Source: an uncultured bacterium
GTDB lineage: Bacteria; T1Sed10-126
Assembly: GCA_964566495.1 (NCBI GenBank)
Contig: CAZMIT010000002.1
Location: 1 to 48,000, forward strand
Direction: 5' to 3'
Length of the DNA stretch: 48,000 nucleotides
Position numbers and translations under genes: made by a program. The notes under the pieces were generated by a model. That model searched no databases, was not told the origin of the DNA, and was given only the letters and a program-made list of their open reading frames with translations. Positions 2,626 through 41,825 of the stretch are shown here, one piece after another. Within the stretch, counting starts at the first letter, position 1. Every line of letters begins with the position of its first letter.

Positions 2626-2751
2626 GAGTCCACTCCAAAAAGTCTACCCTCCCCTGGAGGGAGGGGATTAAGGGGCGGGGGATGGCTCTGAATCGCTAAT
2701 CCCCCCTTTGTGTGTCCCCCCTGCAAGGGGGGAAAGTTTTGGAGTGGACTC
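2626..2751. mobile_element. 126-bp MITE-like element: perfect 15-bp terminal inverted repeats flanked by a 7-bp direct duplication
   Basis: GAGTCCACTCCAAAA (2626-2640) is the exact reverse complement of TTTTGGAGTGGACTC (2737-2751). ATAAGGA occurs immediately outside both ends (2619-2625 and 2752-2758). The interior consists of C-run/G-run hairpins. Confidence 0.65.
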
Positions 2752-2765
2752 ATAAGGAGAAACTA

Positions 2766-13077: not shown

Positions 13078-13082
13078 TAGGT

Positions 13083-16638: not shown

Positions 16639-16672
16639 GGGGATTGAGAAGTTTTCGGAACGTCGGCGCACT

Positions 16673-17806
16673 ATGGTTGATTGGTTTTTTCTCTATTTAA
16701 AGGGTGTATGCATGGGAGTAGCCGACGTAATTCCTGGTGTAAGTGGCGGGACAATGGCGCTTGTGCTGGGCATTTATCGGGAACTGGTTGAAGCCCTGGG
16801 CTCACTTGATCTGGCCTGGTTAGTTCGCTGTGGACGTTCCCTGAGCGAGGGACTAAGTAATTTTATCTCAGTAGTGATAGCCGAATGCAAGAGGCTAAAA
16901 CTACTTTTTTTCCTGGTGCTGGGCGGCGGGATATTTACGGCGCTGAGTTTGGGAGGGGCTCTGATCCCGCCAGTTCTTGAAAGTTACCCGGCCTTTGTTA
17001 GAGCGATTTTTTTCGGACTAATACTGGGTAGTGTTCACGTACCGGCCCGCGCTATTCAAACCCGGGCGCCGCGGCGTTTAATTCCTGCCCTTATCCTGCT
17101 GCTGGGCTTGTTTATGGTCGGTTTACTAATAACCGGTAACGGCGACCGCGCCACCACCGGTTCGCGCACCTGGGTCGAGGTGGAATCGAGCGGTCAATCG
17201 CTGCAGCAGTTGTTGTTTGAACAATATTCAGCCGGCGCTGTTTCTGAAGTCCTGGCCCGCGAAGAAAATCAGCGTCTATTTTCTAACGCTGATGATTCTG
17301 CCGCCGAAATGCATGTGCCAGTCGGGGCTGAGGTTTTAATCCCCCGGCCGTCCTACTGGTTTGTTTTCATCTCCGGTGCCCTGGCTGTATCCGCAATGAT
17401 TTTGCCGGGCATAAGTGGCGCCTATATCCTTTTGATTCTGGGCAGCTATACATTTGTGCTCAACCTGCTTCATCTATTTAACAGCCGGTTGGCCGGCGGT
17501 CGACTGCCCGGTGGAGAAATATTTTACCTGTTTACTTTTGCCTCCGGAATGCTGATCGGAATCGTAACAATCTCACGCCTTTTAAAGTATTTACTCAACA
17601 ACTATAACGATTACACAATGGCCGGATTAATTGGCTTTATGCTCGGTTGTTTGCGTGGTATATGGCCCTGGAGGTGGTTGGCTGACGGGGCCACTTTCTT
17701 GGCCAACTTCAGTCTATTGGGTGTGATAATGACTGCCGTGATTTTTGTCTGGGGGCTGGACTACTTTACTGATGGCGAGACAACCCCGGCTCGTCCGGGC
17801 CGATGA
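16673..17806 (+). CDS. DUF368 family polytopic membrane protein (family linked in the literature to undecaprenyl-phosphate recycling)
   Basis: ORF 16595-17806. The first 26 codons overlap pcm, so ATG 16673 (or 16631) is more plausible. Duplicated signature IPGVSGGTMALVLGIY and LPGISGAYILLILGSY; many hydrophobic helices. Confidence 0.8.
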   Translation: MVDWFFLYLKGVCMGVADVIPGVSGGTMALVLGIYRELVEALGSLDLAWLVRCGRSLSEGLSNFISVVIAECKRLKLLFFLVLGGGIFTALSLGGALIPPVLESYPAFVRAIFFGLILGSVHVPARAIQTRAPRRLIPALILLLGLFMVGLLITGNGDRATTGSRTWVEVESSGQSLQQLLFEQYSAGAVSEVLAREENQRLFSNADDSAAEMHVPVGAEVLIPRPSYWFVFISGALAVSAMILPGISGAYILLILGSYTFVLNLLHLFNSRLAGGRLPGGEIFYLFTFASGMLIGIVTISRLLKYLLNNYNDYTMAGLIGFMLGCLRGIWPWRWLADGATFLANFSLLGVIMTAVIFVWGLDYFTDGETTPARPGR

Positions 17807-21696: not shown

Positions 21697-21707
21697 TAGG
21701 GATTGTA

Positions 21708-21860
21708 AATTCAACGCCACTGGATTCCCGCTTCCGCGGGAATGACAACGTGTGAATAGCCCGTCATTGCCGGACTTGATCCGGCAATCCAGCGATTTTG
21801 AAGTTGATCTTTAAATGGTTCAATTCAACTCCACCGGATTCCCGCTTCCGCGGGAATGAC
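21708..21860. repeat. three copies of the GTCAT-hairpin-ATCCA module (-, +, -)
   Basis: 21708-21746 (-), 21763-21807 (+), 21821-21860 (-). The two minus copies share the stem/loop CCCGC-GGAA-GCGGG. The plus copy has GCCGGA-CTTGA-TCCGGC. Confidence 0.9.
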
Positions 21861-24535: not shown

Positions 24536-26803
24536 ATGAATCAATCAGCTCCTGCAGTCGACGAGTCGGCCGGGGCGATTGAGTGGTGGCGTCGGTTGCC
24601 CGGCTGGCTTGAACATTCCACTCCCGAGAAATTTTTGCAGACGGTGAAGAATGAACTGAAGGATTTTAATCTCTACTTGCGACTGGCAGATGAGTCGGCG
24701 CCAGAAGGGGTCACCGGCAAGGTATTAAAATACACAGAAGACGGACTTGAACTGGAACTGATAATTGCTGACCGTGAAACTGTTGAGAACACCGGTCATT
24801 ATCACGGTTTGATGGCCTGGATAGCGGCTCGCTATGCTCGGCTTCGCGAACAGAAACACCGTGATTTCAATCGCCGCGCCGATGGTTTTTTAAGCGATTT
24901 TTTAGATCGCTACACTGCCTTTGGATCGGCGGTCACTCCCTATATGCTAGCCTCTGTGCTGGCAGAAGTATCGGTCAGGCATTTCAACCGGGAGATCAGT
25001 AGTTTTATTTTTTACAACGAAGATCCCCCCCACCAGGTTTTTGGAGAAGCGGAAAATTTCCCTGAAGCTGAAAAGTTTGAAACTCATGAGCCCCCCCTGA
25101 CGTCCGGTGACGGTTACCACTGGTTTCCAATTTACACTGAAAATTGTCTTTTAGCGTCGGTTGCTTATCAGGAGCGTTTCTGGCCGTCAATCCGGGTCGA
25201 TTACCTGGTTGATGTTTTTAACTGTATTGGTGACCGGCTGAGCGGTATGGCTGAAGCCAAGCCGCCCCGCCACCGAGTTTATGAACTGGGCCAAGCGATT
25301 GACTTAACTTCTGATCACCTGCGAACCAGTCGCGGTCTTGATTACATACTTCAGTCTTATGTAGATATGATTTTTGAAGTATTTGACTGTGACGTTTGCC
25401 GACTTTTTTGGCGCGAATCCGATCATGAACTTAAGTTGCGGGCCTCGACACCACCGGCCGAGGAAGAAAATACAATTATCATTGAGGAAGACCCGCTGAT
25501 TGAGTCGGTTATAAACGAAAGCAAAGGTGTGCTCATCAATAACGTTCCCGCCGCTGATGAAGAAACAGGTCGTGACGATGGCTTTCGAAGTTTTATTTCT
25601 GTTCCCCTGCGGTTGGAGGAACGAGTTATAGGTACTGTTAATATTTCATCGGAACGGGCTAACTCCTACACCGAGGAGCAACTGGCCCGGCTTTCCAGTT
25701 TCTGTGATCGGCTGGCCGGGATCTATTCTATCGCCCTGGATTTTGCTAATCTGACCGCCTACGTTGAAGAGCTATTGCTTGAATTGCCAGTTGGTGTGAT
25801 TAATATTCGCTTTGGCTCCTCGGAAGTTATATTAAATCCCGTCGCACGTCAGCTCCTTTCAATTCCTGCGGGACGACTTGGGGAGGAGGAGTTTGTTGAG
25901 CGAATCAAAAAACTTGATTCCGAGGAGTTAGTGAGTCTTGTTGGGGGGGCGAAAGAGGCTGATCTTGTAGGACCGGTAGACATCGAACTGGGCGGTGAAC
26001 AGAGCCACCCAACAGTAATATCAGCGCTTCGATCATACGTAAAAAATGTCTCGGGTGAAGTTATTGGGGCCATCATCGTTTTGTCCGATGTTACCGAACA
26101 GCGGCTCTTAAACCGGCAGATGAGTCGGACGGAAAGATTGACGGCTCTCGGCGAGCTCGCTTCCAGTCTTGCTCACGAGATAAAAACACCCCTGACTTCC
26201 ATTCACGGTTTTGCTCAGATGATTCCGAAAAAAATGGACCAACCTGAATTTCTTGAACGAATGTCTGAGGTTGTGCAAAGAGAAGCGGACCGGCTCAACT
26301 CTCTGGTTGAAAATCTGCTTTCTTTCGGCAAACCGCAGGTTGAGGAAAAAAGGCGGGTTAACATTCCGGACCTGGTTGAGGATGTGCGGGTTTTAGTGGA
26401 TAAAAAAATAGAAAAAAAGCAAGCCAGTCTAAAGGTGAAATTGCCGGATCAGTTGGAAGTAATGGGGGATGGCGCCAAGTTAAAACAGGTGTTCATCAAT
26501 CTTCTGCTCAATGCGCTTGATGCAGTTGAGCCGGACGGCGAGATCATTGTTCGTGGAGAAAAAACCGACGAGCGCTTTGTAAAAATTGAGGTGGTGGATG
26601 ACGGCGAAGGAATGGAGCCGGAAATTTTAAATAAGATATACAATCCTTTCTTTACCACCAAGTCCGAAGGATCCGGGCTCGGGCTGGCTATCACTCATAG
26701 AATTATTGAGGAACACGGGGGCGAGCTGGAAGTTAACTCGTCGCCCGGCGAAGGGACAGAAGTAAGCATTTTATTACCTGTTTTTGCGACGGGTGAGAGG
26801 TGA
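24536..26803 (+). CDS. cytoplasmic sensor histidine kinase (GAF-like and PAS-like regions, HisKA, HATPase_c)
   Basis: 755 aa with no obvious TM helices. H-box SLAHEIKTPLTSI; N and G boxes NLLLNALDA, DDGEGM, GSGLGLAI. Confidence 0.9.
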   Translation: MNQSAPAVDESAGAIEWWRRLPGWLEHSTPEKFLQTVKNELKDFNLYLRLADESAPEGVTGKVLKYTEDGLELELIIADRETVENTGHYHGLMAWIAARYARLREQKHRDFNRRADGFLSDFLDRYTAFGSAVTPYMLASVLAEVSVRHFNREISSFIFYNEDPPHQVFGEAENFPEAEKFETHEPPLTSGDGYHWFPIYTENCLLASVAYQERFWPSIRVDYLVDVFNCIGDRLSGMAEAKPPRHRVYELGQAIDLTSDHLRTSRGLDYILQSYVDMIFEVFDCDVCRLFWRESDHELKLRASTPPAEEENTIIIEEDPLIESVINESKGVLINNVPAADEETGRDDGFRSFISVPLRLEERVIGTVNISSERANSYTEEQLARLSSFCDRLAGIYSIALDFANLTAYVEELLLELPVGVINIRFGSSEVILNPVARQLLSIPAGRLGEEEFVERIKKLDSEELVSLVGGAKEADLVGPVDIELGGEQSHPTVISALRSYVKNVSGEVIGAIIVLSDVTEQRLLNRQMSRTERLTALGELASSLAHEIKTPLTSIHGFAQMIPKKMDQPEFLERMSEVVQREADRLNSLVENLLSFGKPQVEEKRRVNIPDLVEDVRVLVDKKIEKKQASLKVKLPDQLEVMGDGAKLKQVFINLLLNALDAVEPDGEIIVRGEKTDERFVKIEVVDDGEGMEPEILNKIYNPFFTTKSEGSGLGLAITHRIIEEHGGELEVNSSPGEGTEVSILLPVFATGER

Positions 26804-26812
26804 AAATTAAAA

Positions 26813-28171
26813 GTGTCTGATTTGGTGAAGGTTTATGTGATTGACGACGATCCCAGCATATGTCAGTTGTTTGAAGAAGCTCTTGGAGACAGCTACGATG
26901 TGACTTCATTCCAGGATGGTGAGTCGGGGATAGAGGCGATTGAGGAGTCAACCCCGGATGTGCTGCTGCTCGACATAATGCTGCCGGGGAAAGGGGGGAT
27001 GGAGATACTTGAGGAAGTGCGAGAAAAATTCCCGCGAGTTGTTGTGATAATGGTTACTGCCTATGACGACGTTGACACCGCTGTTCGCGCTGTCAAGCTG
27101 GGAGCACACGATTACATAGCCAAGCCTTTTGACCTCGAGGAGGTTGAGGTGACTATTGAAAAAGGATTGGAAAATCGTGAATTAAGGGAAGAGGTTAAAC
27201 AGCTGCGTTCTTTTCTTGAAGGTGATTATCAACACTCACCTCTGATCGGAGAAAGCCAGGCGATGGAAGAGGTTAAGCAGCGGATCGAAAAGGTGGTTGA
27301 CACTGACACGGCGGTTTTGATCCAGGGGGAGAGTGGGACGGGGAAGGAAGTTGTGGCCAACACTATACATTACAACAGCAGCCGGAGCGACCAGCCGTTT
27401 GTGGCGGTGAACTGCGCTGCTATTCCTTCTGATTTGCTGGAAAGCGAGTTGTTTGGACATAAAAAGGGGGCTTTTACCGGGGCGGAAGAGGACAAAAAGG
27501 GGAAAATTGAACTGGCTGACGGAGGCACCTTGTTTCTCGATGAAATCGGCGCAATGCCTTTGCCGATGCAGGCAAAAATGCTGCGGGTGCTCCAGGATCA
27601 GCAGGTCATGCCGGTCGGGGGCGAGGAGGCCAGACAGCTCGATTTTCGCTTGATCAGTGCAACCAGTTCGGAGATCGAAAAGATGGTTGAGGAGGAGCGC
27701 TTCCGACGTGATTTATACTACCGGATTAATGTCTTTGAAATAAAATTACCACCGTTAAGGAAAAGAAAAAAGGACATCCCTGTATTTTGTAATTATTTTC
27801 TCCAGGAAATAAGCAAAAAAGTGGAGAAAGAAGTGAACGATATTAGTCCGGAGGCGATGGAAATTTTAACCTCTCACGATTGGCCGGGAAATGTTCGTGA
27901 GTTGCGAAACGCCCTTGAAAGTGCTGCCGTGGTTGCTGAAGAGGAGGTGCTTCAACCCGGTGATTTTGATCTGCTGAAAGGATCCCGGGAACGGGCGGCG
28001 GGCGAACAGTCAATCCTGGAGGAGGGTCTCTCCCTACAGGAAGCCGAAGAAAAGCTTGTTGAAGCCACTTTAAAAAGATATGACGGCAACATAACCCGGG
28101 CTGCTAAAGAGCTGGGTATTACTCGAAAAACTCTACGTAAAAAAAGAGATGATTACGGAATTGAGGTGTAG
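26813..28171 (+). CDS. sigma-54-dependent response regulator (NtrC family enhancer-binding protein)
   Basis: REC domain (DVLLLDIMLPG), AAA+ Walker A GESGTGKE, GAFTGA loop (GHKKGAFTGA), C-terminal Fis-type HTH (ITRAAKELGITRKTLRKK). GTG start after a GAGAGGTG RBS. Confidence 0.9.
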   Translation: MSDLVKVYVIDDDPSICQLFEEALGDSYDVTSFQDGESGIEAIEESTPDVLLLDIMLPGKGGMEILEEVREKFPRVVVIMVTAYDDVDTAVRAVKLGAHDYIAKPFDLEEVEVTIEKGLENRELREEVKQLRSFLEGDYQHSPLIGESQAMEEVKQRIEKVVDTDTAVLIQGESGTGKEVVANTIHYNSSRSDQPFVAVNCAAIPSDLLESELFGHKKGAFTGAEEDKKGKIELADGGTLFLDEIGAMPLPMQAKMLRVLQDQQVMPVGGEEARQLDFRLISATSSEIEKMVEEERFRRDLYYRINVFEIKLPPLRKRKKDIPVFCNYFLQEISKKVEKEVNDISPEAMEILTSHDWPGNVRELRNALESAAVVAEEEVLQPGDFDLLKGSRERAAGEQSILEEGLSLQEAEEKLVEATLKRYDGNITRAAKELGITRKTLRKKRDDYGIEV

Positions 28172-30176: not shown

Positions 30177-30205
30177 TTGACATTTAGGGGTTGTTTTCAT
30201 AGAAT
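30177..30205 (+). promoter_or_regulatory. candidate sigma-70 promoter of the pilus motor operon (TTGACA-17 nt-TAGAAT)
   Basis: TTGACA 30177-30182, 17-nt spacer, TAGAAT 30200-30205. Lies 58 nt upstream of the pilB TTG start. Confidence 0.6.
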
Positions 30206-30262: not shown

Positions 30263-32023
30263 TTGCCCGTTCAGAAGAAAAAACTTGGTGAAATACTTAT
30301 CTCCGCCGGGTTAATCACCGAAGACCAACTCAACGAAGCGCTTGAAGAGCAGGAAGAGTCTGGTGAGCGCCTGGGTAAAATATTGAAAGACCTGGGGTAT
30401 ATAAAGGGGATTGAACTGGCAGCAGCCCTCTCCACCCAGCTAAACATACCTTATGTAAGTCTCTCCGACTACAATTTATCCGAGGAACTGGCTGAAGTCA
30501 TCCCCGAAGACGTGGCCCGGGAGAGGCGACTCATACCGATTGAAGAGCTTGAAGACCAGGTTGTGATAGCTGTTGCTGACCCCTTAAACGTAGCGGCCAT
30601 GGATGAAATCAAGATGATGGTCGGCAAGGCCGTCGAGCCGGTTATTGCGGCCGAGGAAGAGATTAACAATGCGATGGGCGACATTTATGGTTCTGCCGAT
30701 CAAATTTCCGGCGTAATTGAGGATATGACCGAAGACGACGTGGATATTGTCTCGGACCAGGGGCCGGAGGTTGGGCAGGATATCGAAGAACAGGTTAACG
30801 AGACGCCGGTGATCAAGCTGGTCAATATGATCCTGCTGGAAGCGATAAAAAATCGCGCCAGTGATATTCACCTGGAGCCGTTTGAACACCGGTTTGTGGT
30901 TCGCATCAGAATTGACGGTGTCCTGCAGGAACTGAATCCGCCGCCTAAGGAATTGCAGTCGGCTGTCATCTCCCGGGTGAAGGTAATGGCCGATCTGGAT
31001 ATCGCTGAGACCCGGTTGCCGCAGGACGGCAGAATTCGATTGCAGTTGAGCGGCCAGGTGCTTGACTTTCGGGTAAGCACAATTCCCACCGTTTTTGGTG
31101 AGAGTGTTGTTCTGCGGCTTTTGAGCCAGGATGACATTGACCTCGAAACGGATGTGCTCGGTTTTATTCCGGAAGTGGAGGATCGCTTTCAGGAGATTAT
31201 TGAAAGACCTAATGGCATAGTTCTTGTTACTGGTCCTACGGGTTGCGGAAAGACTACGACGCTTTATGCCGGTTTAAACCATATCAACAATCCGGAGGAT
31301 AAAATAATTACGATGGAGGATCCGGTTGAATATGAGCTGCCCGGTTTAATCCAGTGCCAGGTGAACGAAGAGGTTGGCTTTACTTTTGCCTCCGGGCTAC
31401 GTTCCATTTTGCGCCAGGACCCGGATATCTGTCTCGTCGGTGAGATTCGTGACGTTGAGACGGCGGAAATTGCCGTCCAGGCCTCTCTGACCGGGCACCT
31501 TGTAATGTCCACCACCCATACTAACGAGGCGGCGGGAGCAATCACTCGTCTTGTTGACATGGGAGTGCAGCCTTTTCTGCTCACTTCCACCATCCAGGCC
31601 ATTGTGGCTCAGCGGCTGGTTCGTCTGATCTGTGAAGAGTGTCGCGAGGAGTATGAACCCGATCCTGACGATTTGCGACAGTTGGGTAAGGACCCCGCCG
31701 AGTGGGCAGATCATAATTTTACCCACGGGACAGGTTGTGAAAACTGTGGCGACACCGGTTTTCGGGGACGTACCGGTATATTTGAACTGCTGGAGATGTC
31801 AAAGGGAGTCAGTGAGCTCGTCAATGAACGTGCCTCGGCTGAACAGATCTTTCAGCAGGCGACCGACGAGGGAATGATACCGATGCGTGATGATGGCTGG
31901 CAGAAGGTAGTTGACGGACAGACGACGATTGAGGAAGTGCTGCGCGTCGCCCCCGTTGAATCTGGTGTTTCTATTGAAATCTCGGAGGAAGACTTTGACG
32001 AGGAGTTCGCCCAATACCTGTGA
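30263..32023 (+). CDS. pilB: type IV pilus / type II secretion assembly ATPase (PilB/GspE/MshE family) with an intact MshEN-type N-terminal domain
   Basis: 586 aa, TTG start after GGAGG. Walker A GPTGCGKTT, tetracysteine CEEC...CENC. The N-terminus carries two 24-residue MshEN motifs (see findings). Confidence 0.9.
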   Translation: MPVQKKKLGEILISAGLITEDQLNEALEEQEESGERLGKILKDLGYIKGIELAAALSTQLNIPYVSLSDYNLSEELAEVIPEDVARERRLIPIEELEDQVVIAVADPLNVAAMDEIKMMVGKAVEPVIAAEEEINNAMGDIYGSADQISGVIEDMTEDDVDIVSDQGPEVGQDIEEQVNETPVIKLVNMILLEAIKNRASDIHLEPFEHRFVVRIRIDGVLQELNPPPKELQSAVISRVKVMADLDIAETRLPQDGRIRLQLSGQVLDFRVSTIPTVFGESVVLRLLSQDDIDLETDVLGFIPEVEDRFQEIIERPNGIVLVTGPTGCGKTTTLYAGLNHINNPEDKIITMEDPVEYELPGLIQCQVNEEVGFTFASGLRSILRQDPDICLVGEIRDVETAEIAVQASLTGHLVMSTTHTNEAAGAITRLVDMGVQPFLLTSTIQAIVAQRLVRLICEECREEYEPDPDDLRQLGKDPAEWADHNFTHGTGCENCGDTGFRGRTGIFELLEMSKGVSELVNERASAEQIFQQATDEGMIPMRDDGWQKVVDGQTTIEEVLRVAPVESGVSIEISEEDFDEEFAQYL

Positions 32024-32060
32024 ATATAACGGCTATTAACGCCGTTAAGGAGGTCCTTTT

Positions 32061-33779
32061 ATGGACGCCGGTAGATTAATAGAGTCCCTGGTTGAAAAGA
32101 AAAAATTGACCCCCGAAGAAGGGGATGAAGTGTTGACCCGCGGGGAGACGACCGGAGAAGAAGTTCTTGCTATAATCACACGGGAATTTGAGATAGATCG
32201 AAAGGAAACCCTGGAAACTTATGCCCATAGTTATGGGATGGAATTTGTTGATCTATCCGACGCCGAGCCAATCGATGACGCTGACGAAATTATTGACTCC
32301 GCAACGGCTCAACAGTATTTTGTTTTTCCCTACGAAAAGACATCAACCTCTCTGAAACTGGCTGTTGCCGAACCCCCCGACTTGCGTATGATGGATGATT
32401 TAGAAGCTATCCTGGAGATGCCTATCGAATGTTCGCTGGCCGATCCGGAGGAATTAGAGGAGTTAATTACCACCTATTATGGCACCTCGATGGATGATAT
32501 TGACAACGTGCTGGATGAGCTGGGAGAAGAAGACCTGGTACACGTCGAGGAAGAGGATGAGGAGGCAGATGTTGCGGAGCTGGAGGAGCAGGCGGAAGAG
32601 GCACCGGTAATTAAGCTGGTAAATATGATTATAATGGAAGCTGTTCAACGGGGGACCAGCGACATTCACATTGAACCCCTCGAGGGACGATTGCTCGTTC
32701 GCTACCGCATTGACGGGGTCCTGCATAAAGCACACGAACCCCCGAAGCGACTGCAGGGGGCGATTGTTTCGCGGATAAAGATAATGTCGGAGATGGATAT
32801 TGCCGAACGGCGTATACCTCAGGACGGGCGGATCAAGTTAAAGATGATGGGGAAGGAACTTGATTTTCGGGTTAGCTGTCTGCCCGGTATTCACGGCGAG
32901 AGCGTCGTACTTCGAATTCTTGACAAGGAATCTGTGAATATCGGCCTGGAAACGCTGGGATTTCTACCGGATAATAAGGCTATATTTGACAAATTGATTC
33001 GCAAACCGAACGGGATTATTCTGGTCACCGGTCCGACCGGTTCGGGTAAGACGACGACCCTGTATTCTGCTTTGCAGGAACTTAATACGCCGGACCGCAA
33101 GCTGATTACGATTGAGAACCCGGTTGAGTATCAGCTGGAAGGCATAAACCAAATGCAGGTGAACGACGAGATCGGGCTGGATTTTTCACGGGGATTGAGT
33201 TCACTGCTCCGCCAGTCGCCGGACGTTATTCTTGTCGGGGAAATACGTGACTACGAGACGGCCGAGACGGCAATACGGGCGGCTCTCACCGGTCACCTGG
33301 TCTTTTCGACACTGCATACCAACGATGCCCCCAGCGCCGTGAACCGCCTGGTTGACCTTGGTGTCAACGCTTACCTGATCAGCTCGGCCGTGCAGGCTAT
33401 TATGGCCCAGCGCCTGGTCCGGAAAATTTGTGACAACTGTAAGGTTGAATACGAGCCGGAGATGGAATATATCCACCGAGTCGGATTCCCAGAGGAAGAC
33501 GTTGAAGAGACGACTTTCTATCAGGGAGAAGGCTGTGAAAATTGCAACATGACCGGCTATACCGGTCGGACCGCTGTCTTTGAAATGATGGTTACTAACG
33601 AACAAATGAAGGATATGATACTTGAAGGCTGTACGACTAACGAGCTGCGCGATGTGGCCATCGATAGCGGCATGAGGACCCTGCGCCAGGACGGCTTCAT
33701 CAAGGTTAAGATGGGCGACACGACGCTGATGGAAGTCGCCCGGGTAACTCAGGCCCACGGAACCGCGGCCGCGGTGTAA
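32061..33779 (+). CDS. second PilB/GspE-family assembly ATPase paralog
   Basis: 572 aa, AGGAGG RBS. Walker A GPTGSGKTT, tetracysteine CDNC...CENC. The N-terminal domain is diverged. Confidence 0.9.
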   Translation: MDAGRLIESLVEKKKLTPEEGDEVLTRGETTGEEVLAIITREFEIDRKETLETYAHSYGMEFVDLSDAEPIDDADEIIDSATAQQYFVFPYEKTSTSLKLAVAEPPDLRMMDDLEAILEMPIECSLADPEELEELITTYYGTSMDDIDNVLDELGEEDLVHVEEEDEEADVAELEEQAEEAPVIKLVNMIIMEAVQRGTSDIHIEPLEGRLLVRYRIDGVLHKAHEPPKRLQGAIVSRIKIMSEMDIAERRIPQDGRIKLKMMGKELDFRVSCLPGIHGESVVLRILDKESVNIGLETLGFLPDNKAIFDKLIRKPNGIILVTGPTGSGKTTTLYSALQELNTPDRKLITIENPVEYQLEGINQMQVNDEIGLDFSRGLSSLLRQSPDVILVGEIRDYETAETAIRAALTGHLVFSTLHTNDAPSAVNRLVDLGVNAYLISSAVQAIMAQRLVRKICDNCKVEYEPEMEYIHRVGFPEEDVEETTFYQGEGCENCNMTGYTGRTAVFEMMVTNEQMKDMILEGCTTNELRDVAIDSGMRTLRQDGFIKVKMGDTTLMEVARVTQAHGTAAAV

Positions 33780-33926: not shown

Positions 33927-34979
33927 ATGGACGTTTTTGACCTTATGCAGATGTGCATAGACCAGGATGCCTCGGACATTCATTTGACCGTGGGAACCAA
34001 GCCAGTGTTACGGGTTGACGGGGGAATTAAAAAGGTGGACGAAGCTGAAAAATTAACCCCCCAGGACACCGAAAAGATGGTTAAGGCTGTCGCGCCGGAC
34101 GAACACCTGGAAAAGCTGGCCAAGGCCGGCCAGAGTGACTTTGGTTACGAAATGGAGGACGGCAACCGTTTCCGGGTCGCTATTTTTAAACAGCAAAAAT
34201 ACGCCGGCATGGTTATGCGGCTTATTCCTAAAAAAATATTTACTTTTGAAGAGCTGGGGTTGCCTTCAAAAATGAAGGAAATTTGCACCTACCCCCGGGG
34301 AATAGTTCTCGTCACCGGGCCTACCGGTTCCGGGAAAACCACCACCCTGGCCGCTTTTATCGATTATATAAATTCTAACTTTGGCAAGCATATAATTACA
34401 ATCGAGGACCCGATAGAATTTAAACATCCGCACAAGCAGTCGATTATAACTCAGCGTGAACTGGGTGTCGACGTGCTCTCGTTTAGCGACGGCATCCGTT
34501 CCGGCCTGCGTATGGACCCTGACGTTATGCTGGTCGGTGAGATGCGCGACCAGGAGACAATCGGTGCCGCGATAACCGCCGCTGAGACCGGTCACCTCGT
34601 TTTTGCAACTCTGCATACTAACAGTGCCGCACAGACGGTCAACCGGATTATTGATACTTTCCCCCAGGAAGAACAGTCCCAGGTGCGTTCGCAGCTTTCA
34701 ATCACACTGACTTCGGTCATCTCCCAGACGCTAATGCCCTTAAAGAGTGGCACCGGACGGACTGCGGCTTTTGAAATAATGATTGCAACACCCGGAATTC
34801 AGAATTTGATTCGCGAGAAGAAGGAACAGAACATCCCCTCGGCCATTCAGACCGGTGGCAACCTGGGCATGCAGACTCTTGACCAGCACCTGCAGCAGCT
34901 TTACCAGCGCGGTAAAATTTCCTACGACGAGGCTGTTGCCAACGCCCAGAACGCCGAGGAACTGAAGAAAAAATTGTAA
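33927..34979 (+). CDS. pilT: twitching-motility (retraction) ATPase PilT
   Basis: 350 aa. ASDIHL, GPTGSGKTT, and PGIQNLIRE (variant of the AIRNLIRE PilT signature). Confidence 0.9.
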   Translation: MDVFDLMQMCIDQDASDIHLTVGTKPVLRVDGGIKKVDEAEKLTPQDTEKMVKAVAPDEHLEKLAKAGQSDFGYEMEDGNRFRVAIFKQQKYAGMVMRLIPKKIFTFEELGLPSKMKEICTYPRGIVLVTGPTGSGKTTTLAAFIDYINSNFGKHIITIEDPIEFKHPHKQSIITQRELGVDVLSFSDGIRSGLRMDPDVMLVGEMRDQETIGAAITAAETGHLVFATLHTNSAAQTVNRIIDTFPQEEQSQVRSQLSITLTSVISQTLMPLKSGTGRTAAFEIMIATPGIQNLIREKKEQNIPSAIQTGGNLGMQTLDQHLQQLYQRGKISYDEAVANAQNAEELKKKL

Positions 34980-35024: not shown

Positions 35025-36242
35025 ATGCCTACTTTTGAATATCAGGCGATGGATTCCAGCGGTCAGGAGGTCTCGGGCCGGATTGATGCGGCCAGCGAAA
35101 GTGCTGCCGTCTCCGACCTGAAAGACCAGGGTTACCGGCCCTTTGAAGTCAATGAGGTCTCCACTGGCGACTTCGACATCTTGGATTATATTCCACTGAT
35201 TGGCGGTACTCCGGTAAGTGGTGAGGAGGTTGCCCTGTTCACCAGGCAGATGGCGACCCTGCTGGACGCCGGACTGCCGCTGCTGCGGGCCGTCAACGTC
35301 CTGAAAGAGCAGACAGAGAACGAGGATTTTCAACAAATACTGGGCCAGATTGCCCAGGACATCCAGGGAGGAGCCAGCTTCAGCGAGGCCCTGAAAGCAC
35401 ATCCCGACGTCTTCGAAGAGCTTTACATTAACATGGTCAAGGCGGGTGAGGTCGGTGGAGTGATGGAACAGGTGCTTGACCGGCTGGCTGATTTTGCCGA
35501 GTCCGCACAGGAGCTGCGGATGAAGATTAAGTCGGCAACCATGTATCCGGCTATTATGTTTGGCATAGCAATCCTGGTTGTATCTTTTCTGCTGGTATTT
35601 GTTCTGCCCACCTTTATCGACCTTTTCTCTGAGATGGGAGTCGATTTACCGTTGCCGACTCGAATTGTAATTGGTTTGAGTAATTTCCTCCAGCATCGCT
35701 GGTATGTGGTTATTATTGCTGCCATCGGTGGCTTTTATGGTTTGAAGTGGTATTATGGAACTGACCAGGGAGAATACAATATTGATAAAATGAAAATAAA
35801 CATGCCCATTTTCGGGACGCTATTTCGGAAGGTAGCCGTGGCTCGCTTCGCTCGCACTCTATCAACGCTGATTCAGAGCGGGGTTCCGATACTGCAGGCG
35901 ATTGAGATTGTCCAGGACACTATCGGCAATCGAGTTGTCTCTGAAGTTATGGATGACGTCTACGACAGTATCAGCGAGGGTGATACAATTAGTGAGCCGC
36001 TGGCTGAATCGGGTGTCTTCCCCCCAATGGTCACCAACATGATATCGGTCGGGGAAGAGACCGGTAATCTCGACGGTATGCTCAGCCGCGTCGCCGACAC
36101 CTATGAGATGCAGGTCGACGAGATGGTCGAGGGGCTCAGTTCAATGCTCGAACCGATTCTTATTCTTTTTATGGGGATTATGGTCGGGACAATCGTCATG
36201 GCCATGTTCTTCCCGATGTTCCAATTGATCCAGGTGGTCTGA
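35025..36242 (+). CDS. pilC: type IV pilus platform protein PilC (GspF family)
   Basis: 405 aa with a duplicated GspF domain, three hydrophobic segments, and blocks LATLLDAGLPLLRA and LSTLIQSGVPILQA. Confidence 0.9.
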   Translation: MPTFEYQAMDSSGQEVSGRIDAASESAAVSDLKDQGYRPFEVNEVSTGDFDILDYIPLIGGTPVSGEEVALFTRQMATLLDAGLPLLRAVNVLKEQTENEDFQQILGQIAQDIQGGASFSEALKAHPDVFEELYINMVKAGEVGGVMEQVLDRLADFAESAQELRMKIKSATMYPAIMFGIAILVVSFLLVFVLPTFIDLFSEMGVDLPLPTRIVIGLSNFLQHRWYVVIIAAIGGFYGLKWYYGTDQGEYNIDKMKINMPIFGTLFRKVAVARFARTLSTLIQSGVPILQAIEIVQDTIGNRVVSEVMDDVYDSISEGDTISEPLAESGVFPPMVTNMISVGEETGNLDGMLSRVADTYEMQVDEMVEGLSSMLEPILILFMGIMVGTIVMAMFFPMFQLIQVV

Positions 36243-36279: not shown

Positions 36280-37206
36280 ATGAATTACAAAACAACTCTA
36301 TCGCTTCTGCTAACCGTAACTCTTGCTCTCTTTCTCGCCGGCTGTCCGACCGAGGAGGAGCCCCCCGAAGTTTATGAAGAGCTGGGTATAGATGGAGAAG
36401 AACGCGTGGTAATTGAATACGGTCACGTGCCCTCTATCTCTGCTTCCGAAAGGCGGGCGGAGTTGCGTCCGCTTGAGGAGTATCTGGAGGAGAATTTGCC
36501 AGTAGAGTTCAGCATAAATTTTGACAGTGATTACGGTTCAGTTATCGAAAAAATAAAAGAGGGCGAGTATAACTTCGCTACTTTTGGTCCCATGTCTTAC
36601 GTGGAAGCGGCCCGCGAGAAGGCGGTAACTCCGGCGGTAAAGCCGCTCCGCTTTGGTGAGGAAAGCTATAAATCTCTCCTTCTTGCACACGAAGACTCCG
36701 ATATTTATGAACCCGAAGATTTTCGCGGCCGAAGTTTTGCTTTTGTCGACGAAAAATCAGCTTCCGGCTACCTCTTTCCCTACGCTTTTCTCAAGGACCA
36801 GGGAATAGATCCTCAGGCGGATTTGGGCGTGACCAGTTTTCTTGGCGGTCACACTGATGTTGTTGCTGCCGTCTGGTTGGAAAACTACGCCGGCGGCGCT
36901 GTCTATGACGACGCTCGACAGGATATGGACAATCCCGAGCGCGTTATCGAAAATACCCGCGTGGTTGCTAAAACACCACCGATTCCTAACGAACCCTGGG
37001 CCTTTCGGGCAGAATTTGTCGAGCAATATCCGGAGCTGGTTGAAGAAATAATCAGTCTGCTGGTCGGGCTGGAAGATGAGGGCCCAAGCGGTAAGCGCAT
37101 TCTTGACAGCCTCGGGATTAGCGGTTTCACCAGGGCTGAAGATGCTGATTACGACGTTGTGCGTGATCTGGAGGATTACCTGCCCGAATTCGAGGAAGAA
37201 CTGTAA
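36280..37206 (+). CDS. PhnD-like (phosphate/phosphonate-type) periplasmic substrate-binding lipoprotein
   Basis: 308 aa. Lipobox LALFLAGC. Blocks recalled from PhnD-family binding proteins (ATFGPMSYVEA, SASGYLFPYAFL). Very acidic. Confidence 0.75.
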   Translation: MNYKTTLSLLLTVTLALFLAGCPTEEEPPEVYEELGIDGEERVVIEYGHVPSISASERRAELRPLEEYLEENLPVEFSINFDSDYGSVIEKIKEGEYNFATFGPMSYVEAAREKAVTPAVKPLRFGEESYKSLLLAHEDSDIYEPEDFRGRSFAFVDEKSASGYLFPYAFLKDQGIDPQADLGVTSFLGGHTDVVAAVWLENYAGGAVYDDARQDMDNPERVIENTRVVAKTPPIPNEPWAFRAEFVEQYPELVEEIISLLVGLEDEGPSGKRILDSLGISGFTRAEDADYDVVRDLEDYLPEFEEEL

Positions 37207-37213
37207 TCTCTTA

Positions 37214-37269
37214 CCCCACCGCCCCATCGCCCCACCGCCCCCTCGCCCCATCGCCCCACCGCTCCACCG
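37214..37269 (+). repeat. tandem octanucleotide repeat, 7 units of CCCCAYCG-like sequence
   Basis: CCCCACCG CCCCATCG CCCCACCG CCCCCTCG CCCCATCG CCCCACCG CTCCACCG, in the 75-nt gap between the binding-protein stop (37206) and the kinase ATG (37282). Confidence 0.9.
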
Positions 37270-37281
37270 TCGGTCTACCCC

Positions 37282-39237
37282 ATGTTACCTGACAAACTGG
37301 CTGACAGTCGGGCGACTGGCCTGCTCTCCTTCTTCGGCTATTTTCTTGCAATCCTGGTTCTCTTTGTTTTATTTTCCCATTTTGTCCCGGTTGTCGACGA
37401 GCTGGTCGGCTGGTTCTGGCTTGCCTTTTTTCTCTTTTTATTTTTTGTGCTCGAGCCGCTCTACCGCCGTTTTACCGATCGTTTTGAATATCACGTGCTG
37501 GTCCTTGAGTTTTACCTGTTTAGCGTCTACCTCGTCCATCTCTTTTTCCCCGAGCTTGACTACGTCCACCTTTTTTACTTGATCCCTATTTTTTCGGCCG
37601 CTTTAAGTTTCGGCCTCCTCGGGACAATGCTTACAGCTTCCGCGGCTTTTCTGCTTGAAACTGTTCGTGTTTCACCCCCCTGGGCTTTTGAACTCGAGGC
37701 CCTGCAGCCAATCCTTCCCTCAATTCTACCACTTTTCATCCTTGCCCTGTTGCTCGGTTTTACGGTCGAGCTAAAAAATTACACACAGCGCCAGCTTCTT
37801 AACCGGCTTTCAAAAATGGATACTTTTCAGGCACTGCGGCGGGTTGTTGACACCACTGGTGAATTATTTCCCTTTACCAAAGAGCTGCTGCAGACGGTTG
37901 TGCAAATTTCGGAAGTTAGCGGCGGGATGTTTGTCGAGAGCAAAGCGGAAACCATCGTTGTCTCTGTCAACCTGGAAGCGGAAGAAAAAGAACAACTCTT
38001 AAAAGCCCGGCGGGAAGAGCTTGATAGCCACAGTGGCAGGGAAATATATCGAATTAAATTACCCTGGGCCGAGAAATCTTATGAAATGGTACTCTGGGGC
38101 TCACGTCTGCAGGGCATTCTCAAGCGGGCCGAGCGAGAGATGATACGCGCCCTGGCCATATACCTGGAGCACTTTGTTGACAACCTGCGCACACAACACG
38201 AGAAAGAACGGGCCTACCGCCTGCGCGAGGCTTTGATTGAAGCGGTGCCCCTGGGTATCGTTGTCACCGATAACCGCGGTGTTGTCGTTGAGATCAACCG
38301 CCACGCCGGCGAGCTGATCGGACTGACGGCGGCGGACGTGGTCGGTTGCCGGTTTGAGGAGGTTTTTAATTTTTCTGAAGACGAGATTAATCTGGCTGAA
38401 GTTCGTTGTGAAACGGAACTGGTTGTTGAGCGTATAGATTGTGAGACAATTCCGGTAGATCTATCAATTACTGAGGCCGAGTTTGGTCCCGGCCAGGCGG
38501 GCCAGTGGATAGTTGTCTTTTCCGACTTGCGGCCTCTGAAAAAACTACAGGAACAGGCCGAACGCCGCCGGCGACTGTTGGCCCTGGGTGAGTTTGCGGC
38601 CGGTATGGCTCACGAGATCAGAAACCCGCTTGGCAGTCTCTCCGGCTTTATTTCTCTGCTTCAACAGAAGGTTGAAGCGCTGCCGGGGGGAACCGACGTT
38701 GAAAAATTGATCGAGAAGATTAGAAATAGCTACAATCGGGTTGACGAGCTGGTAGAAAATTTTCTGCTCTACGCGCGTAAACCGGAAATTGAGGTTGAAA
38801 AAGTCAACCTGGCAAAATTCCTTGAGTCCTGGATTGCCGATATAAGTCCCCCTGAAGGCATTAGTCTGGAGACAGATTTCAGTGATCTCGATGGATTTGT
38901 GACCGCTAATCGCTCGCGCTTTCGCACGGCGCTTGACAATTTAATTCGTAACGCCGCCGAAGCTACGGGCGGCGAGGGCACGGTGCGGGTGGAAGCCCAC
39001 TCCCGGGGAAATGAGGCTCTGATCGCGGTTGAGGATGATGGCGAGGGTTTTGATCAGCAGCTACTTGAGCGGGCTTTTGAACCTTTTGTCTCTGGCAAAG
39101 AGGAGGGGCTGGGACTGGGACTGGCAATAGTTCACCGGATAATTAGCGAAGAAATGGACGGAGAGTTGGAACTATCGTCCCCGGCTGGAGAGAGGACGCG
39201 AGTCACGATTCACTTGCCCCTGCAACCACAAGATTGA
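37282..39237 (+). CDS. membrane sensor histidine kinase, PilS-like architecture (multi-TM N-terminus, PAS, HisKA, HATPase_c)
   Basis: 651 aa with about six hydrophobic helices in the first ~170 aa and no large periplasmic loop. H-box GMAHEIRNPLGSL; NLIRNAAEA, DDGEGF, GLGLGLAIV. No Shine-Dalgarno visible upstream (C-rich repeat instead). Confidence 0.85.
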   Translation: MLPDKLADSRATGLLSFFGYFLAILVLFVLFSHFVPVVDELVGWFWLAFFLFLFFVLEPLYRRFTDRFEYHVLVLEFYLFSVYLVHLFFPELDYVHLFYLIPIFSAALSFGLLGTMLTASAAFLLETVRVSPPWAFELEALQPILPSILPLFILALLLGFTVELKNYTQRQLLNRLSKMDTFQALRRVVDTTGELFPFTKELLQTVVQISEVSGGMFVESKAETIVVSVNLEAEEKEQLLKARREELDSHSGREIYRIKLPWAEKSYEMVLWGSRLQGILKRAEREMIRALAIYLEHFVDNLRTQHEKERAYRLREALIEAVPLGIVVTDNRGVVVEINRHAGELIGLTAADVVGCRFEEVFNFSEDEINLAEVRCETELVVERIDCETIPVDLSITEAEFGPGQAGQWIVVFSDLRPLKKLQEQAERRRRLLALGEFAAGMAHEIRNPLGSLSGFISLLQQKVEALPGGTDVEKLIEKIRNSYNRVDELVENFLLYARKPEIEVEKVNLAKFLESWIADISPPEGISLETDFSDLDGFVTANRSRFRTALDNLIRNAAEATGGEGTVRVEAHSRGNEALIAVEDDGEGFDQQLLERAFEPFVSGKEEGLGLGLAIVHRIISEEMDGELELSSPAGERTRVTIHLPLQPQD

Positions 39238-39332
39238 AGGTACTTGTTTAGCCCGGTCCTGACAAAATATTCCGAGTTTCGTCATCTCGGGCTAGTGCTT
39301 GGTCACAGTCGAAAATGTGACTGCTTCTGGTT

Positions 39333-39645
39333 GTCATTCTCGTGGAAGCGGGAATCCAGTGGCGTTGAATTTCTGATGGTCTAAAGTCAAAGTCACTGGA
39401 TTGCCCAATCAAGTTGGGCAATGACGATCGTTAGGTCAGGTTCGTTCTTGAACTTGACGTCATCCCGGCCCCCGAGCCGGGATCCATCTTGAACTTGATC
39501 TTGATTTTCGGTCTTGCGCCTCTTCGCCCGTTCGCAAGCTCGCCTCTTCGAGCTCTCCCCCCGAGGGAGAGGACCCGGCCTCCGAGCCGGAATCCATCCC
39601 CCCTTTCCTTTTCCCCCCTTGAAGGGGGGGAAGACAAAGGGGGGT
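39333..39645. repeat. mosaic array of hairpin modules between the kinase and regulator genes
   Basis: GTCAT-hairpin-ATCCA copies at 39333-39372 (+), 39384-39425 (-), 39459-39493 (+) and 39572-39597 (+, 5' truncated). TTGAA/TTGAT periodic stretch 39488-39510. CTCTCCC/GGGAGAG hairpin 39553-39571. Nested C-run/G-run hairpin 39596-39645. Confidence 0.9.
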
Positions 39646-39698
39646 GCAAGTGAGAAGTAAATTAGAGAGCAAAACAATTCAAAAACGGAGGAAAAACA

Positions 39699-41033
39699 AT
39701 GTCCAATCAGACGGTTCTTGTCGTCGAAGACGACGAAATGATGCGCGATTTTCTCTGTCAGGCACTTGAGACCTACGACTACCGGCCTCTTGCTGCTGCC
39801 GATGCCAGGGCTGGCCTGGAGCTCTTCCGCAGCGATGCCCCCGACCTGGTTGTTGTCGACATTCGTATGCCCGGCGCCTCTGGACTTGACTTTCTCGACG
39901 AGCTGCGAAACGAAGACCAGCGCGTCCCCGTCGTCATGGTTACCGCCTACGGCGACACCGACACAGCCGTCACGGCTCTCCGCCGGCAGGCCGACGATTT
40001 TTTACAGAAACCGTTTGAAGCAGAGGAATTTATCCAGGCGATTGAGCGCCAGTTTAAAAGACAGAAGCGCACCGATCTGGCCGCCCGGGCCGACAGCTTT
40101 AGTCTCGTCTACGAGAGCGAGCAGATGCAGCAACTTGTCGACTACGCCCGCCGCATTGCCCCTAAAACCGATCCCGTCCTGATTGAAGGTGAGAGTGGCG
40201 CTGGCAAGGAGGTCTTCGCCCGCTTTATCCACTACCAGGGTCCCCGCGGCGAGACCCCGTTGGTTACCGTCAACTGCGGCGCTATCCCCGGTGAGTTGCT
40301 GGAAAGTGAACTTTTTGGTCACACCGAGGGCGCTTTTACCGGCGCCAGCTCCGACCGACAGGGACTCTTTCAAACCGCCGATGGTGGCACGGTTTTGCTT
40401 GATGAAATTGGTGATCTACCGCTTGAACTTCAGTCTAAACTTCTGCGCGTCCTGGAAAACAATCAGGTCCGTCCCGTTGGAAGTGACAGCTCAATTTCGG
40501 TCGACGTCCGCGTTCTTGCCGCCTCTAACCGAGACCTTGAGTCGATGGTCGACCGCGGTGAATTTCGTGATGACCTCTTCTACCGTTTGAATGTCTTTGC
40601 GCTGCGCGTTCCACCGCTGCGCGAACGACCAGCCGATATACCCGTTCTTGTCCGTTACTTTTTAGACCAGATGGGTCTCGATCTTGAAATATCGGCGTCG
40701 GCTCGGGAGCTGCTGACTGCTTACAACTGGCCCGGGAACGTTCGCGAATTGAAGAACTTGCTCCGTCGCCTCCAGGCTCTCGACGTGGGGACAGTTCTGG
40801 AACCGGAAAACTTACAAGCAGTCGGGCTTACTGCGTCGGAAAGTGATTTCGCTGAAGCAGGCTTCGATTTCCCCCCGGACCCCGACCTGGATACAATGCT
40901 TCGCCAGTTAAAACGTCGTTATATAGAACAGGCGCTGGAGCAGACCGGGGGCAATAAATCAGCCGCCGCCGATCTGCTCGGCATGAACCGCACCACCCTC
41001 GTCGAAACCATCAAACGCCTGGACCTTGATTAA
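39699..41033 (+). CDS. sigma-54-dependent response regulator, PilR-like
   Basis: REC (DLVVVDIRMPG), Walker A GESGAGKE, GAFTGA (GHTEGAFTGA), C-terminal HTH (NKSAAADLLGMNRTTLVETIKR). GGAGG RBS. Confidence 0.9.
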   Translation: MSNQTVLVVEDDEMMRDFLCQALETYDYRPLAAADARAGLELFRSDAPDLVVVDIRMPGASGLDFLDELRNEDQRVPVVMVTAYGDTDTAVTALRRQADDFLQKPFEAEEFIQAIERQFKRQKRTDLAARADSFSLVYESEQMQQLVDYARRIAPKTDPVLIEGESGAGKEVFARFIHYQGPRGETPLVTVNCGAIPGELLESELFGHTEGAFTGASSDRQGLFQTADGGTVLLDEIGDLPLELQSKLLRVLENNQVRPVGSDSSISVDVRVLAASNRDLESMVDRGEFRDDLFYRLNVFALRVPPLRERPADIPVLVRYFLDQMGLDLEISASARELLTAYNWPGNVRELKNLLRRLQALDVGTVLEPENLQAVGLTASESDFAEAGFDFPPDPDLDTMLRQLKRRYIEQALEQTGGNKSAAADLLGMNRTTLVETIKRLDLD

Positions 41034-41182
41034 CCAATTCTCTTCCTTAACTAAACTCTCTCCCAAAAGCCCCCTCTGTATATACATTGATCACAGAAGC
41101 CGATAAATAAGTCCTTCAGTATTTACCATCTGAATGGACCTGAAACTATTAATTTATCACCAATTAAATTTGATCAAGATAA

Positions 41183-41611
41183 TTACCCGGGCAGTGCGAT
41201 CATGCTGAAGACCATGACAAACAGGGCTACGGTCTCAACAATACCAACGACCATAATATAGTTACCGAAACCTTCGCCTGTTTCACCCAGTGCGTCTGAG
41301 GCCCGCGCTCCAGCTTTGCCCTGGAAAAAGGCGGAAAAGCCCATCGCTATTCCAGCTACGCCCCCCAGGATTAGCGGAAACCAGACCGGCATTTCAGCCC
41401 AGGTAGCGTCCAGTATGGCGTCACGCAGGATCATCCCATAAATTGTCTGGGTCAGGGGAGCACCAACAAAAGCTATGATAATAAAGGGAGCGGCTCGATT
41501 TTCGGCGTATGCTTTCTTCCAGGCGCCGATTGCCGACATCCCCGCCACCCCCGTCCCAATCGCAGAACCAATAGCCGCAAGCGTCAGCGACAATCCTAAA
41601 TCACCTAACAT
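41183..41611 (-). CDS. atpK: V-type ATPase proteolipid subunit K (four-helix c-subunit)
   Basis: 142 aa with four hydrophobic helices. PLTQTIYG, FFQGKAG and VETVALF contexts. AGGAGAAG RBS. Confidence 0.85.
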   Translation of the reverse strand: MLGDLGLSLTLAAIGSAIGTGVAGMSAIGAWKKAYAENRAAPFIIIAFVGAPLTQTIYGMILRDAILDATWAEMPVWFPLILGGVAGIAMGFSAFFQGKAGARASDALGETGEGFGNYIMVVGIVETVALFVMVFSMIALPG

Positions 41612-41757: not shown

Positions 41758-41825
41758 GTCATTGCGGGCCCTGACCCGCAATCCATTTTTTCCCCCCTTC
41801 GTTTTTCCCCCCTTCAAGGGGGAAA
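41758..41825 (+). repeat. composite GTCAT-hairpin-ATCCA plus C-run/G-run hairpin module inside the V-ATPase operon
   Basis: GTCATTGCGGGCCCTGACCCGCAATCCA (41758-41785), then TTTTTTCCCCCCTTCGTTTTTCCCCCCTTCAAGGGGGAAAC (41786-41825). Plus orientation, while the flanking genes are on the minus strand. Confidence 0.85.

Follow-up and report, generated by a model that had tools for sequence, protein, structure and literature searches.

A PhnD-fold lipoprotein gene between pilC and a PilS/PilR-like gene pair in the candidate phylum T1Sed10-126 suggests an added co-sensor for type IV pilus expression

The genes described here lie in a window of 48,000 nucleotides (positions 1 to 48,000 of the forward strand of contig CAZMIT010000002.1, assembly GCA_964566495.1) from an uncultured bacterium of the GTDB lineage T1Sed10-126. 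Directly after pilC, which encodes the platform protein of a type IV pilus (35025..36242, plus strand; T2SSF, 1e-70; PilC/GspF models, 425-434 bits), the plus strand carries genes for a solute-binding lipoprotein (SBP) of the PhnD family (36280..37206, 308 aa), a PilS-like histidine kinase (37282..39237, 651 aa), and a PilR-like, sigma-54 response regulator of the NtrC family (39699..41033, 444 aa). An earlier note on this DNA had reported a gene for a PhnD-fold lipoprotein inserted between those for PilC and the kinase, and had proposed that the three genes form an AioX/AioS/AioR-style sensor grafted onto a pilS-pilR position. The inserted gene was found as described, and the third gene does encode a sigma-54 activator, with REC, Sigma54_activat (4e-68), AAA_lid_14, and HTH_8 domains (Pfam). 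The SBP was assigned from Pfam and NCBIfam profiles, a fold model, and pocket residues, and the kinase from domain and topology evidence; the profile matches behind the assignments of the SBP, kinase, regulator, and pil genes are far beyond chance.

The signal peptide of the SBP ends in the lipobox LAGC (Cys22) and is followed by an acidic tether of ~20 residues that reaches to about residue 42; the protein as a whole is very acidic (isoelectric point 4.2, Asp plus Glu 21%). It matches Pfam Phosphonate-bd (PF12974) with an E value of 2e-59 over profile positions 2-242 of 242 and passes the cut-off of NCBIfam TIGR01098, the subfamily of phosphate/phosphite/phosphonate ABC transporter SBPs (153.9 bits, cut-off 112); its score is below the cut-off of the NCBIfam PhnD equivalog (129 versus 261). 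An AlphaFold model with 34 homologues as input had a mean pLDDT of 92.6. When this model was searched against the PDB with Foldseek, the best matches were PtxB, ArrX, AioX, PhnD, and HtxB, with target TM-scores of 0.6-0.83 (~0.73 for AioX), and the top 42 matches were all PhnD-fold proteins of the phosphonate-binding type, including XAC2383 and GpxB, with E values down to 5e-24. The fold search does not separate the five best matches as relatives of the SBP. Profile match and model place the SBP in the PF12974 fold family, with the predicted two-lobed fold of type II periplasmic binding proteins (PBPs). Its placement relative to AioX, ArxX, and PtxB was based on E-value ranking, pocket residues, and genomic context. 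By sequence, the nearest solved structures are those of PtxB (E 1.3e-24, ~27% identity), followed by HtxB, AioX (6e-11), PhnD (3e-10), and ArrX (6.5e-10); XAC2383 gives a marginal match (E 0.0026).

Pocket residues were numbered by alignment of the SBP to Escherichia coli PhnD (from MG1655), the 2-aminoethylphosphonate-binding protein of the PhnCDE transporter. The equivalent positions, with the PhnD residue given before that of the SBP, are Y47 and Y85, G65 and G103, S68 and S106, Y93 and Y130, S127 and S160, T128 and A161, S129 and S162, H157 and H191, N175 and Y209, E177 and D211, and D205 and E238. All are invariant across 13 members of the SBP family, except A161, which is Ala or Thr; this invariance suggests that ligand binding is under selection. 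The oxyanion core (two Tyr, Ser-x-Ser, and His) is present in the SBP as Y85, Y130, S160, S162, and H191, all five identical in PhnD and invariant in the 13 members. In AioX, a Tyr/Tyr/Ser/Ser/His set represents the same shared core, while Cys106 and Asp210, equivalent to PhnD Gly65 and Asn175, are specific to AioX (PMC5908839). PhnD residues E177 and D205 grip the amino group of 2-aminoethylphosphonate (PMC5908839), and this acidic pair is kept in the SBP as D211 and E238. On these comparisons the SBP pocket matches that of E. coli PhnD and not those of AioX or PtxB, and we predict, with low to moderate confidence, a PhnD-like pocket that would accept a ligand whose phosphorus head group is anionic and whose tail is cationic. 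Overall identity to PhnD is ~22%, and T128 is replaced by Ala; unlike PhnD, which is soluble in the periplasm, the SBP is a lipoprotein and is encoded with a kinase, not with phnC/phnE.

Two more specific assignments were considered for the SBP and rejected. Membership in the AioX subfamily is contradicted by Gly103 and Tyr209 at the AioX-specific positions, and the similarity ranking favors PtxB. Phosphite binders carry a strictly conserved capping tyrosine that makes a P-H...pi contact (PMC5700983); the PtxB motif PQYPW is replaced in the SBP family by an invariant PNEPW (E238), so that the capping Tyr is absent and PtxB-type phosphite binding is not expected. The signature Y209-D/E210-D211 ... 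P236-N237-E238-P239 is also found in the next clade out (P0014-P0018).

The membrane part of the kinase comprises 5-6 helices within residues 11-162, with hydrophobic segments at 13-31, 41-59, 72-90, 95-127, and 144-162. Segment 95-127 could form a single long helix or a pair of short helices that flank the invariant G111/G114, and the positive-inside rule favors six transmembrane helices with a cytoplasmic N terminus. Because the predicted outward loops are just 9, 4, and 16 aa long, the kinase appears to lack a periplasmic domain, in agreement with the earlier description of about six helices and no periplasmic sensor loop. Its cytoplasmic part comprises an alpha/beta domain at ~200-280, called GAF-like because homologue P0071 matches GAF_2 there, followed by PAS (315-415), HisKA (H444), and HATPase_c domains. 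The best whole-kinase matches outside the lineage are kinases of 550-565 aa with the Pfam domain 6TM_PilS (PF25323), some of them annotated as PilS, which align just with the PAS-kinase half at 30-33% identity. Two of these were inspected (L012 and L013); in both loci the kinase gene stands between pilC, its immediate neighbor, and a sigma-54 regulator gene, and an SBP gene is absent. This confirms in two canonical loci that pilS-pilR directly follows pilC, as the earlier note had described for Geobacter- and Myxococcus-type clusters.

Kinase residues 1-310 were compared with 1.84 billion representative proteins in an exhaustive phmmer search (E <= 1e-3), which superseded a word-indexed search that returned 2 matches only, on hydrophobic words. 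The N-terminal module is rare: 11 proteins were found, 5 of which come from the same lineage. Among the distant homologues, P0067 (652 aa) has the same architecture as the window's kinase and belongs to a pilB-pilB-pilT-pilC-histidine kinase-response regulator cluster without an SBP gene (L018). This cluster, from another metagenome-assembled genome (MAG), fits the picture of an SBP grafted onto a pilS-pilR position. The gene for P0071 (689 aa, L020) follows one for a PhnD-like lipoprotein of 318 aa, with 43% identity to the SBP, and precedes a regulator gene; the two coding sequences share one base, the SBP ending at position 1241, where the kinase starts. No pilC was found in the 285 nt upstream of that SBP gene, which is all of the upstream sequence there. 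Motifs common to all kinase homologues are E58-P59, Y78, P102/S105/F110/G111/G114, and G159-F160..E163, and they sit in the membrane helices and the juxtamembrane segment, outside the outward loops.

Conservation of the locus was assessed in public metagenomic sequences. The order pilC-SBP-kinase is kept in seven independent contigs (L001, identical to L011, and L002, L006, L007, L008, L009, and L010), with identities of 68-97% for PilC, 50-92% for the SBP, and 38-92% for the kinase. Together with L020, in which the SBP-kinase pairing recurs outside the lineage, they show the adjacency of the SBP and kinase genes to be conserved, a point on which the earlier note had made its proposal depend. 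Among public sequences, L010 is the closest relative, with 81-88% nucleotide identity over the shared genes; it belongs to MAG T1Sed10_126, which comes from soda-lake sediment. Judging from the shared name, this MAG is presumably the name-giving genome of T1Sed10-126, a GTDB candidate phylum ("Ca. Salsurabacteriota") reported to be halophilic and to have acidic proteomes.

Between the kinase and regulator genes of the window lies a spacer of 461 bp (39238..39698) in which repeat comparison revealed short repeats resembling miniature inverted-repeat transposable elements (MITEs) and GC-rich hairpins (e.g. CCCGGCCCCCGAGCCGGGATCCATC). Further MITE-like copies are present in the window at 21707-21860, 2701-2735, and 41792-41822, and also in L010. 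A long kinase-regulator gap is likewise found in relatives, and the gaps of L006 and L010 hold toxin-antitoxin-like gene pairs, recognized by eye from translated open reading frames (ORFs). The pair in L006 (3638-4535), located between kinase and regulator in a gap of 1.6 kb, consists by eye of an RHH/CopG-like antitoxin and a PIN-domain toxin. The kinase-regulator and regulator-pilA gaps are insertion hot spots in this lineage.

Orthologues of the regulator (56-90% identity) are present in L002, L006, and L010, each with a gene for a type IVa pilin further 3' (N terminus ...G/FTLIELLVV). Ahead of pilA, L010 has a perfect sigma-54 promoter, TGGCACACAAATTGCT, at 16178, and L002 has one with a single mismatch, GGGCACAAAAATTGCT, at 6266; L006 has a weak candidate only. 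The sigma-54 promoters that the earlier note suggested seeking upstream of pilin genes thus exist in relatives, and none was found near the pil or sensor genes of the window. A scan of the window at two mismatches gave four sites, as many as expected by chance, each of which falls within an unrelated gene. With high confidence, we regard the kinase and regulator as the PilS/PilR equivalents of this lineage. For the regulator, the PilR role rests on synteny and the downstream pilA, since identity to canonical PilR cannot separate it from a paralogue encoded upstream of the pil genes. In L010, the segment past the end of synteny with the window (13884-17036, compared with 41033-41183 of the window) contains repeats, a HigB/HigA-like toxin-antitoxin pair recognized by eye (14016-14982), and pilA (16593-17015). 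The leader of ~400 nt between promoter and pilA in L010 includes, at 16250-16590, several tandem AT-rich units of ~65 nt and two AAAAATCCCTCTCCCCTGGAGGGA elements.

The genomic setting of SBP relatives provides a second line of evidence. At 43% identity stands the L020 protein, whose neighbors are the kinase with six transmembrane helices and the regulator. At 33-38% identity, three different loci carry a HAMP-GAF-GGDEF gene directly 3' of the SBP gene, and in two of them the genes overlap. Another relative, at 33%, is accompanied by a hybrid histidine kinase between genes for an RR-HD protein and a GGDEF-EAL protein. By falling identity, the first relative linked to an ABC ATPase and permease appears at 27%. 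The nearest relatives (33-43%) thus all adjoin signaling proteins, and the SBP was not seen to group with the PhnD proteins of transporters. No ABC_tran or BPD_transp genes were found in the 48-kb window or on the relatives' contigs, the search having been made at contig level. SBP genes whose products stimulate sensor kinases typically adjoin signaling genes, AioX (PF12974) with AioS being one case (PMC8050422; PMC5908839). The recurrence of PhnD-like SBPs beside kinases and diguanylate cyclases suggests an under-described signaling branch within a family routinely annotated as phosphonate ABC transporter SBPs. Source databases apply that label to the SBPs of L003, L014, L016, and L022, which come from several unrelated metagenomic lineages; their genes lie directly 5' of a HAMP-GAF-GGDEF or hybrid kinase gene, and the proteins carry the pocket signature YDD...PNEP of the pilus-linked family.

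Several known systems resemble the locus in part. Like the PilS-PilR pairs of the Pseudomonas aeruginosa, Geobacter, and Myxococcus type, the window's kinase and regulator genes come after pilB/pilT/pilC; the kinase has ~six transmembrane helices, no periplasmic domain, and a PAS-HisKA-HATPase arrangement; and the regulator belongs to the NtrC family, with a REC-AAA+-HTH architecture. A downstream pilin with a sigma-54 promoter completes the likeness in L002 and L010 (weaker in L006), though not in the window, which has no pilA. The window also differs from PilS-PilR loci in the SBP gene between pilC and the kinase, and in the kinase itself, which has an extra GAF-like domain and is ~100 aa longer (651 versus ~550-565 aa). 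PilS has six transmembrane segments and senses pilin within the membrane, and PilR acts with sigma-54 at pilA (PMC6058289). The likeness to AioXSR/ArxXSR seen by the earlier note holds for the gene logic, namely a PF12974 SBP, a histidine kinase, and a sigma-54 AAA+ regulator in the same order, and does not extend to the AioX subfamily, as PtxB is closer and no Cys106 equivalent is present, or to a periplasmic domain of the kinase. AioS has a periplasmic, sCache-like sensor domain (PMC8050422) that has no counterpart in the window's kinase. Unlike the Aio, Arx, and Arr loci, the window has no arsenic metabolism genes nearby, the neighbors being the pil genes and a V-type ATPase operon that starts downstream of the regulator on the minus strand.

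Binding proteins of this fold class also serve membrane signaling partners of other kinds. XAC2383 of Xanthomonas citri is reportedly (work attributed to Teixeira et al. 2018) a free periplasmic binding protein that partners the membrane diguanylate cyclase XAC2382, and NspS-MbaA is another pair of a PBP with a membrane diguanylate cyclase. The SBP resembles these in being a free binding protein whose gene lies beside that of a membrane signaling partner; the XAC2383 structures 5ub3 and 5ub7 are among its fold matches (query TM-score 0.66-0.68), and its nearest relatives without a kinase partner are encoded directly 5' of HAMP-GAF-GGDEF genes. The partner in the window differs in being a histidine kinase without a periplasmic domain. 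The tetrathionate sensor kinase TtrS uses a PhnD-like domain as its periplasmic sensor, and SBP residues 129-193 give a partial match to the TtrS model NF040750 (E 5.5e-7); that domain is fused into the TtrS kinase, in contrast to the separate lipoprotein of the window. Literature searches returned no report that ties a PhnD-like protein to PilS/PilR or to type IV pilus genes, or that presents one as a component of the pilus, in keeping with the earlier note's statement that it knew of no such module beside pilus motor genes. By analogy, the window's system would work like PilS/PilR with an AioX-like accessory sensor, a new variant that combines known parts.

The reading toward which we lean, by a modest measure, is that a PilS/PilR-type system for transcription of the type IV pilin has gained an SBP co-sensor as its third component, and that the SBP feeds the kinase. 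The coupling of SBP to kinase is suggested by their conserved and recurrent gene adjacency. Under this scheme the lipoprotein would be held at the membrane by its acidic linker of ~20 residues and would bind a small anionic ligand of the phosphorus type with a cationic moiety. Either the liganded or the unliganded form would then touch the kinase, at its short periplasmic loops or on its membrane face, and this contact would shift the balance between the kinase and phosphatase activities of the enzyme. The kinase would phosphorylate the PilR-like regulator, leading to sigma-54 transcription of pilA and possibly of other genes. Its membrane domain probably retains an older input independent of the SBP, e.g. 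PilS-like sensing of pilin within the membrane, because the same domain occurs in the SBP-less pilC-histidine kinase-response regulator cluster. With a conserved ligand-binding lipoprotein attached to the pilus two-component switch, pilus expression in this halophilic lineage probably responds to a small molecule from outside the cell, and a phosphonate-like compound is the likely candidate. The most specific form of the proposal, that the PhnD-fold lipoprotein gates a PilS-type kinase through its loops or membrane face and that pilus expression responds to an extracellular phosphonate-like or organophosphorus compound, is offered tentatively, as one possible mechanism.

A number of observations weigh against this reading. 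The main weakness is the kinase's lack of a periplasmic domain: the characterized SBP-kinase pairs listed in a review all act via a periplasmic sensor domain (PMC8050422). The outward loops of the kinase are among its least conserved parts, and comparison with the SBP-less homologue P0067, which occupies the same gene position, revealed no loop insertion specific to SBP-associated kinases; with loops so short and poorly conserved, no docking surface is evident. A Pfam search (E<0.01) gave no PF25323 match in the membrane domain, and hhalign of the N-terminal part against the 6TM_PilS profile was collinear over 166 columns with a probability of 4% and an E value of 0.01, which is not significant. 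A six-frame search found no pilin gene in the window, nor did the promoter scan find a sigma-54 site near its pil and sensor genes. Synteny with L010 stops four bases past the regulator stop codon, and a rearrangement at this point best explains why pilA is missing from the window. Identity to canonical PilR is 38% for the regulator and 42% for its upstream paralogue (26813-28171). Finally, L001/L011 has no regulator 3' of the kinase; the region 3' of the kinase there (11948-15513) contains small ORFs and three EutN/CcmL microcompartment vertex (shell) genes.

Some of these points would also suit an SBP with no part in kinase signaling. The lipoprotein could be an ordinary uptake SBP for a PhnCE-like ABC transporter encoded elsewhere, its gene being carried in the pilus operon, e.g. 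for co-expression. It passes the NCBIfam cut-off for a subfamily of ABC transporter SBPs, its pocket keeps the ligand residues of a transporter PhnD, the kinase offers no periplasmic docking domain and has an SBP-less homologue, and the search for ABC genes covered contigs, not whole genomes. We nevertheless consider this unlikely, given that no permease or ATPase gene appears in the window or on the relatives' contigs, that the relatives at 33-43% identity all lie beside signaling proteins with the ABC-linked one at 27%, and that the pairing of SBP and kinase, there with overlapping genes, is seen again outside a pilus setting. The position 37 bp after pilC, conserved and probably on one transcript with pilB-pilT-pilC, would also allow the lipoprotein to act on the pilus machine, e.g. 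in ligand-dependent control of PilC/PilB assembly or pilus function, and not on the kinase. This seems very unlikely: in L020 the homologous SBP gene accompanies those of the kinase and regulator, with no pilC in the available 285 nt before it, other close relatives pair with diguanylate cyclases or kinases and not with pilus genes, and the literature searches found no pilus component of the PhnD fold.

It is also conceivable that the three-component sensor is real but that its regulon is not pilin, the position beside the pil genes being historical and the two-component pair at 24536-28171 being the true pilus regulator. The missing pilA after the window's regulator, the slightly closer relation of the upstream regulator to canonical PilR, and the L001 locus without a downstream regulator all point in this direction. 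Yet three relatives carry pilA 3' of the downstream regulator gene, at least two of them with a sigma-54 promoter; the catalytic half of the kinase is nearest to PilS kinases; and the SBP-less L018 cluster has the classical pilC-histidine kinase-response regulator order. On balance, we judge a regulon other than pilin to be improbable, and retain the reading of a PilS/PilR-type pilin switch with an SBP co-sensor.

In textbooks, pilin supply is regulated by PilS/PilR, whose only established input, to our knowledge, is the membrane pilin pool. If the lipoprotein gates the kinase as proposed, no earlier description of a PilS/PilR-type system would have included a chemical input, and some bacteria would couple pilus production, and with it adhesion, twitching, and DNA uptake, to an external chemical cue. 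The SBP-kinase coupling would be of a mode outside the characterized pairs, all of which have a periplasmic sensor domain, and the system would provide a test case for SBP signaling to a kinase with membrane helices only. It would also add a functional trait to T1Sed10-126, an almost unstudied halophilic candidate phylum.

The pil genes upstream of pilC are all on the plus strand. A candidate sigma-70-like promoter for pilB1 (TTGACA-17-TAGAAT, 30177..30205; 11/12 matches in a scan for the consensus only) precedes the gene for a PilB-type assembly ATPase with an MshEN-type N terminus that binds cyclic di-GMP (c-di-GMP) (30263..32023; T2SSE, 9e-137; MshEN, 1e-21; NCBIfam c-di-GMP motif NF053729, 65 bits, cut-off 38). 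A second PilB-type assembly ATPase (32061..33779; T2SSE, 1e-139; TIGR02538, 648 bits) and the PilT retraction ATPase (33927..34979; TIGR01420 pilT_fam, 472 bits, cut-off 319) follow. The tandem arrangement of PilB-type ATPases (30263-33779) is also kept in L001, L010, and the distant L018. Intergenic gaps are 37 bp between pilC and the SBP gene and 75 bp between the SBP and kinase genes, and a scan from pilB1 to the kinase stop codon revealed no convincing terminator, the count of terminator-like sequences being that expected by chance. Together with the candidate promoter at 30177, from which transcription perhaps starts, the short gaps and the lack of a convincing terminator suggest that pilB1-pilB2-pilT-pilC-SBP-kinase form one transcript.

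Just 5' of the pil genes, the second sigma-54 two-component pair (24536-28171) encodes a cytoplasmic GAF histidine kinase without transmembrane helices together with a regulator of the NtrC type; next comes an amidohydrolase gene. The regulator of this pair is 89% and the amidohydrolase 86% identical in L010, whose contig starts within the regulator gene. Elsewhere in the window, at 2712-5369, a single ORF of 885 aa combines DHH/DHHA1 domains, a CBS pair, and the head domains of a poly(A) polymerase/CCA-adding enzyme.

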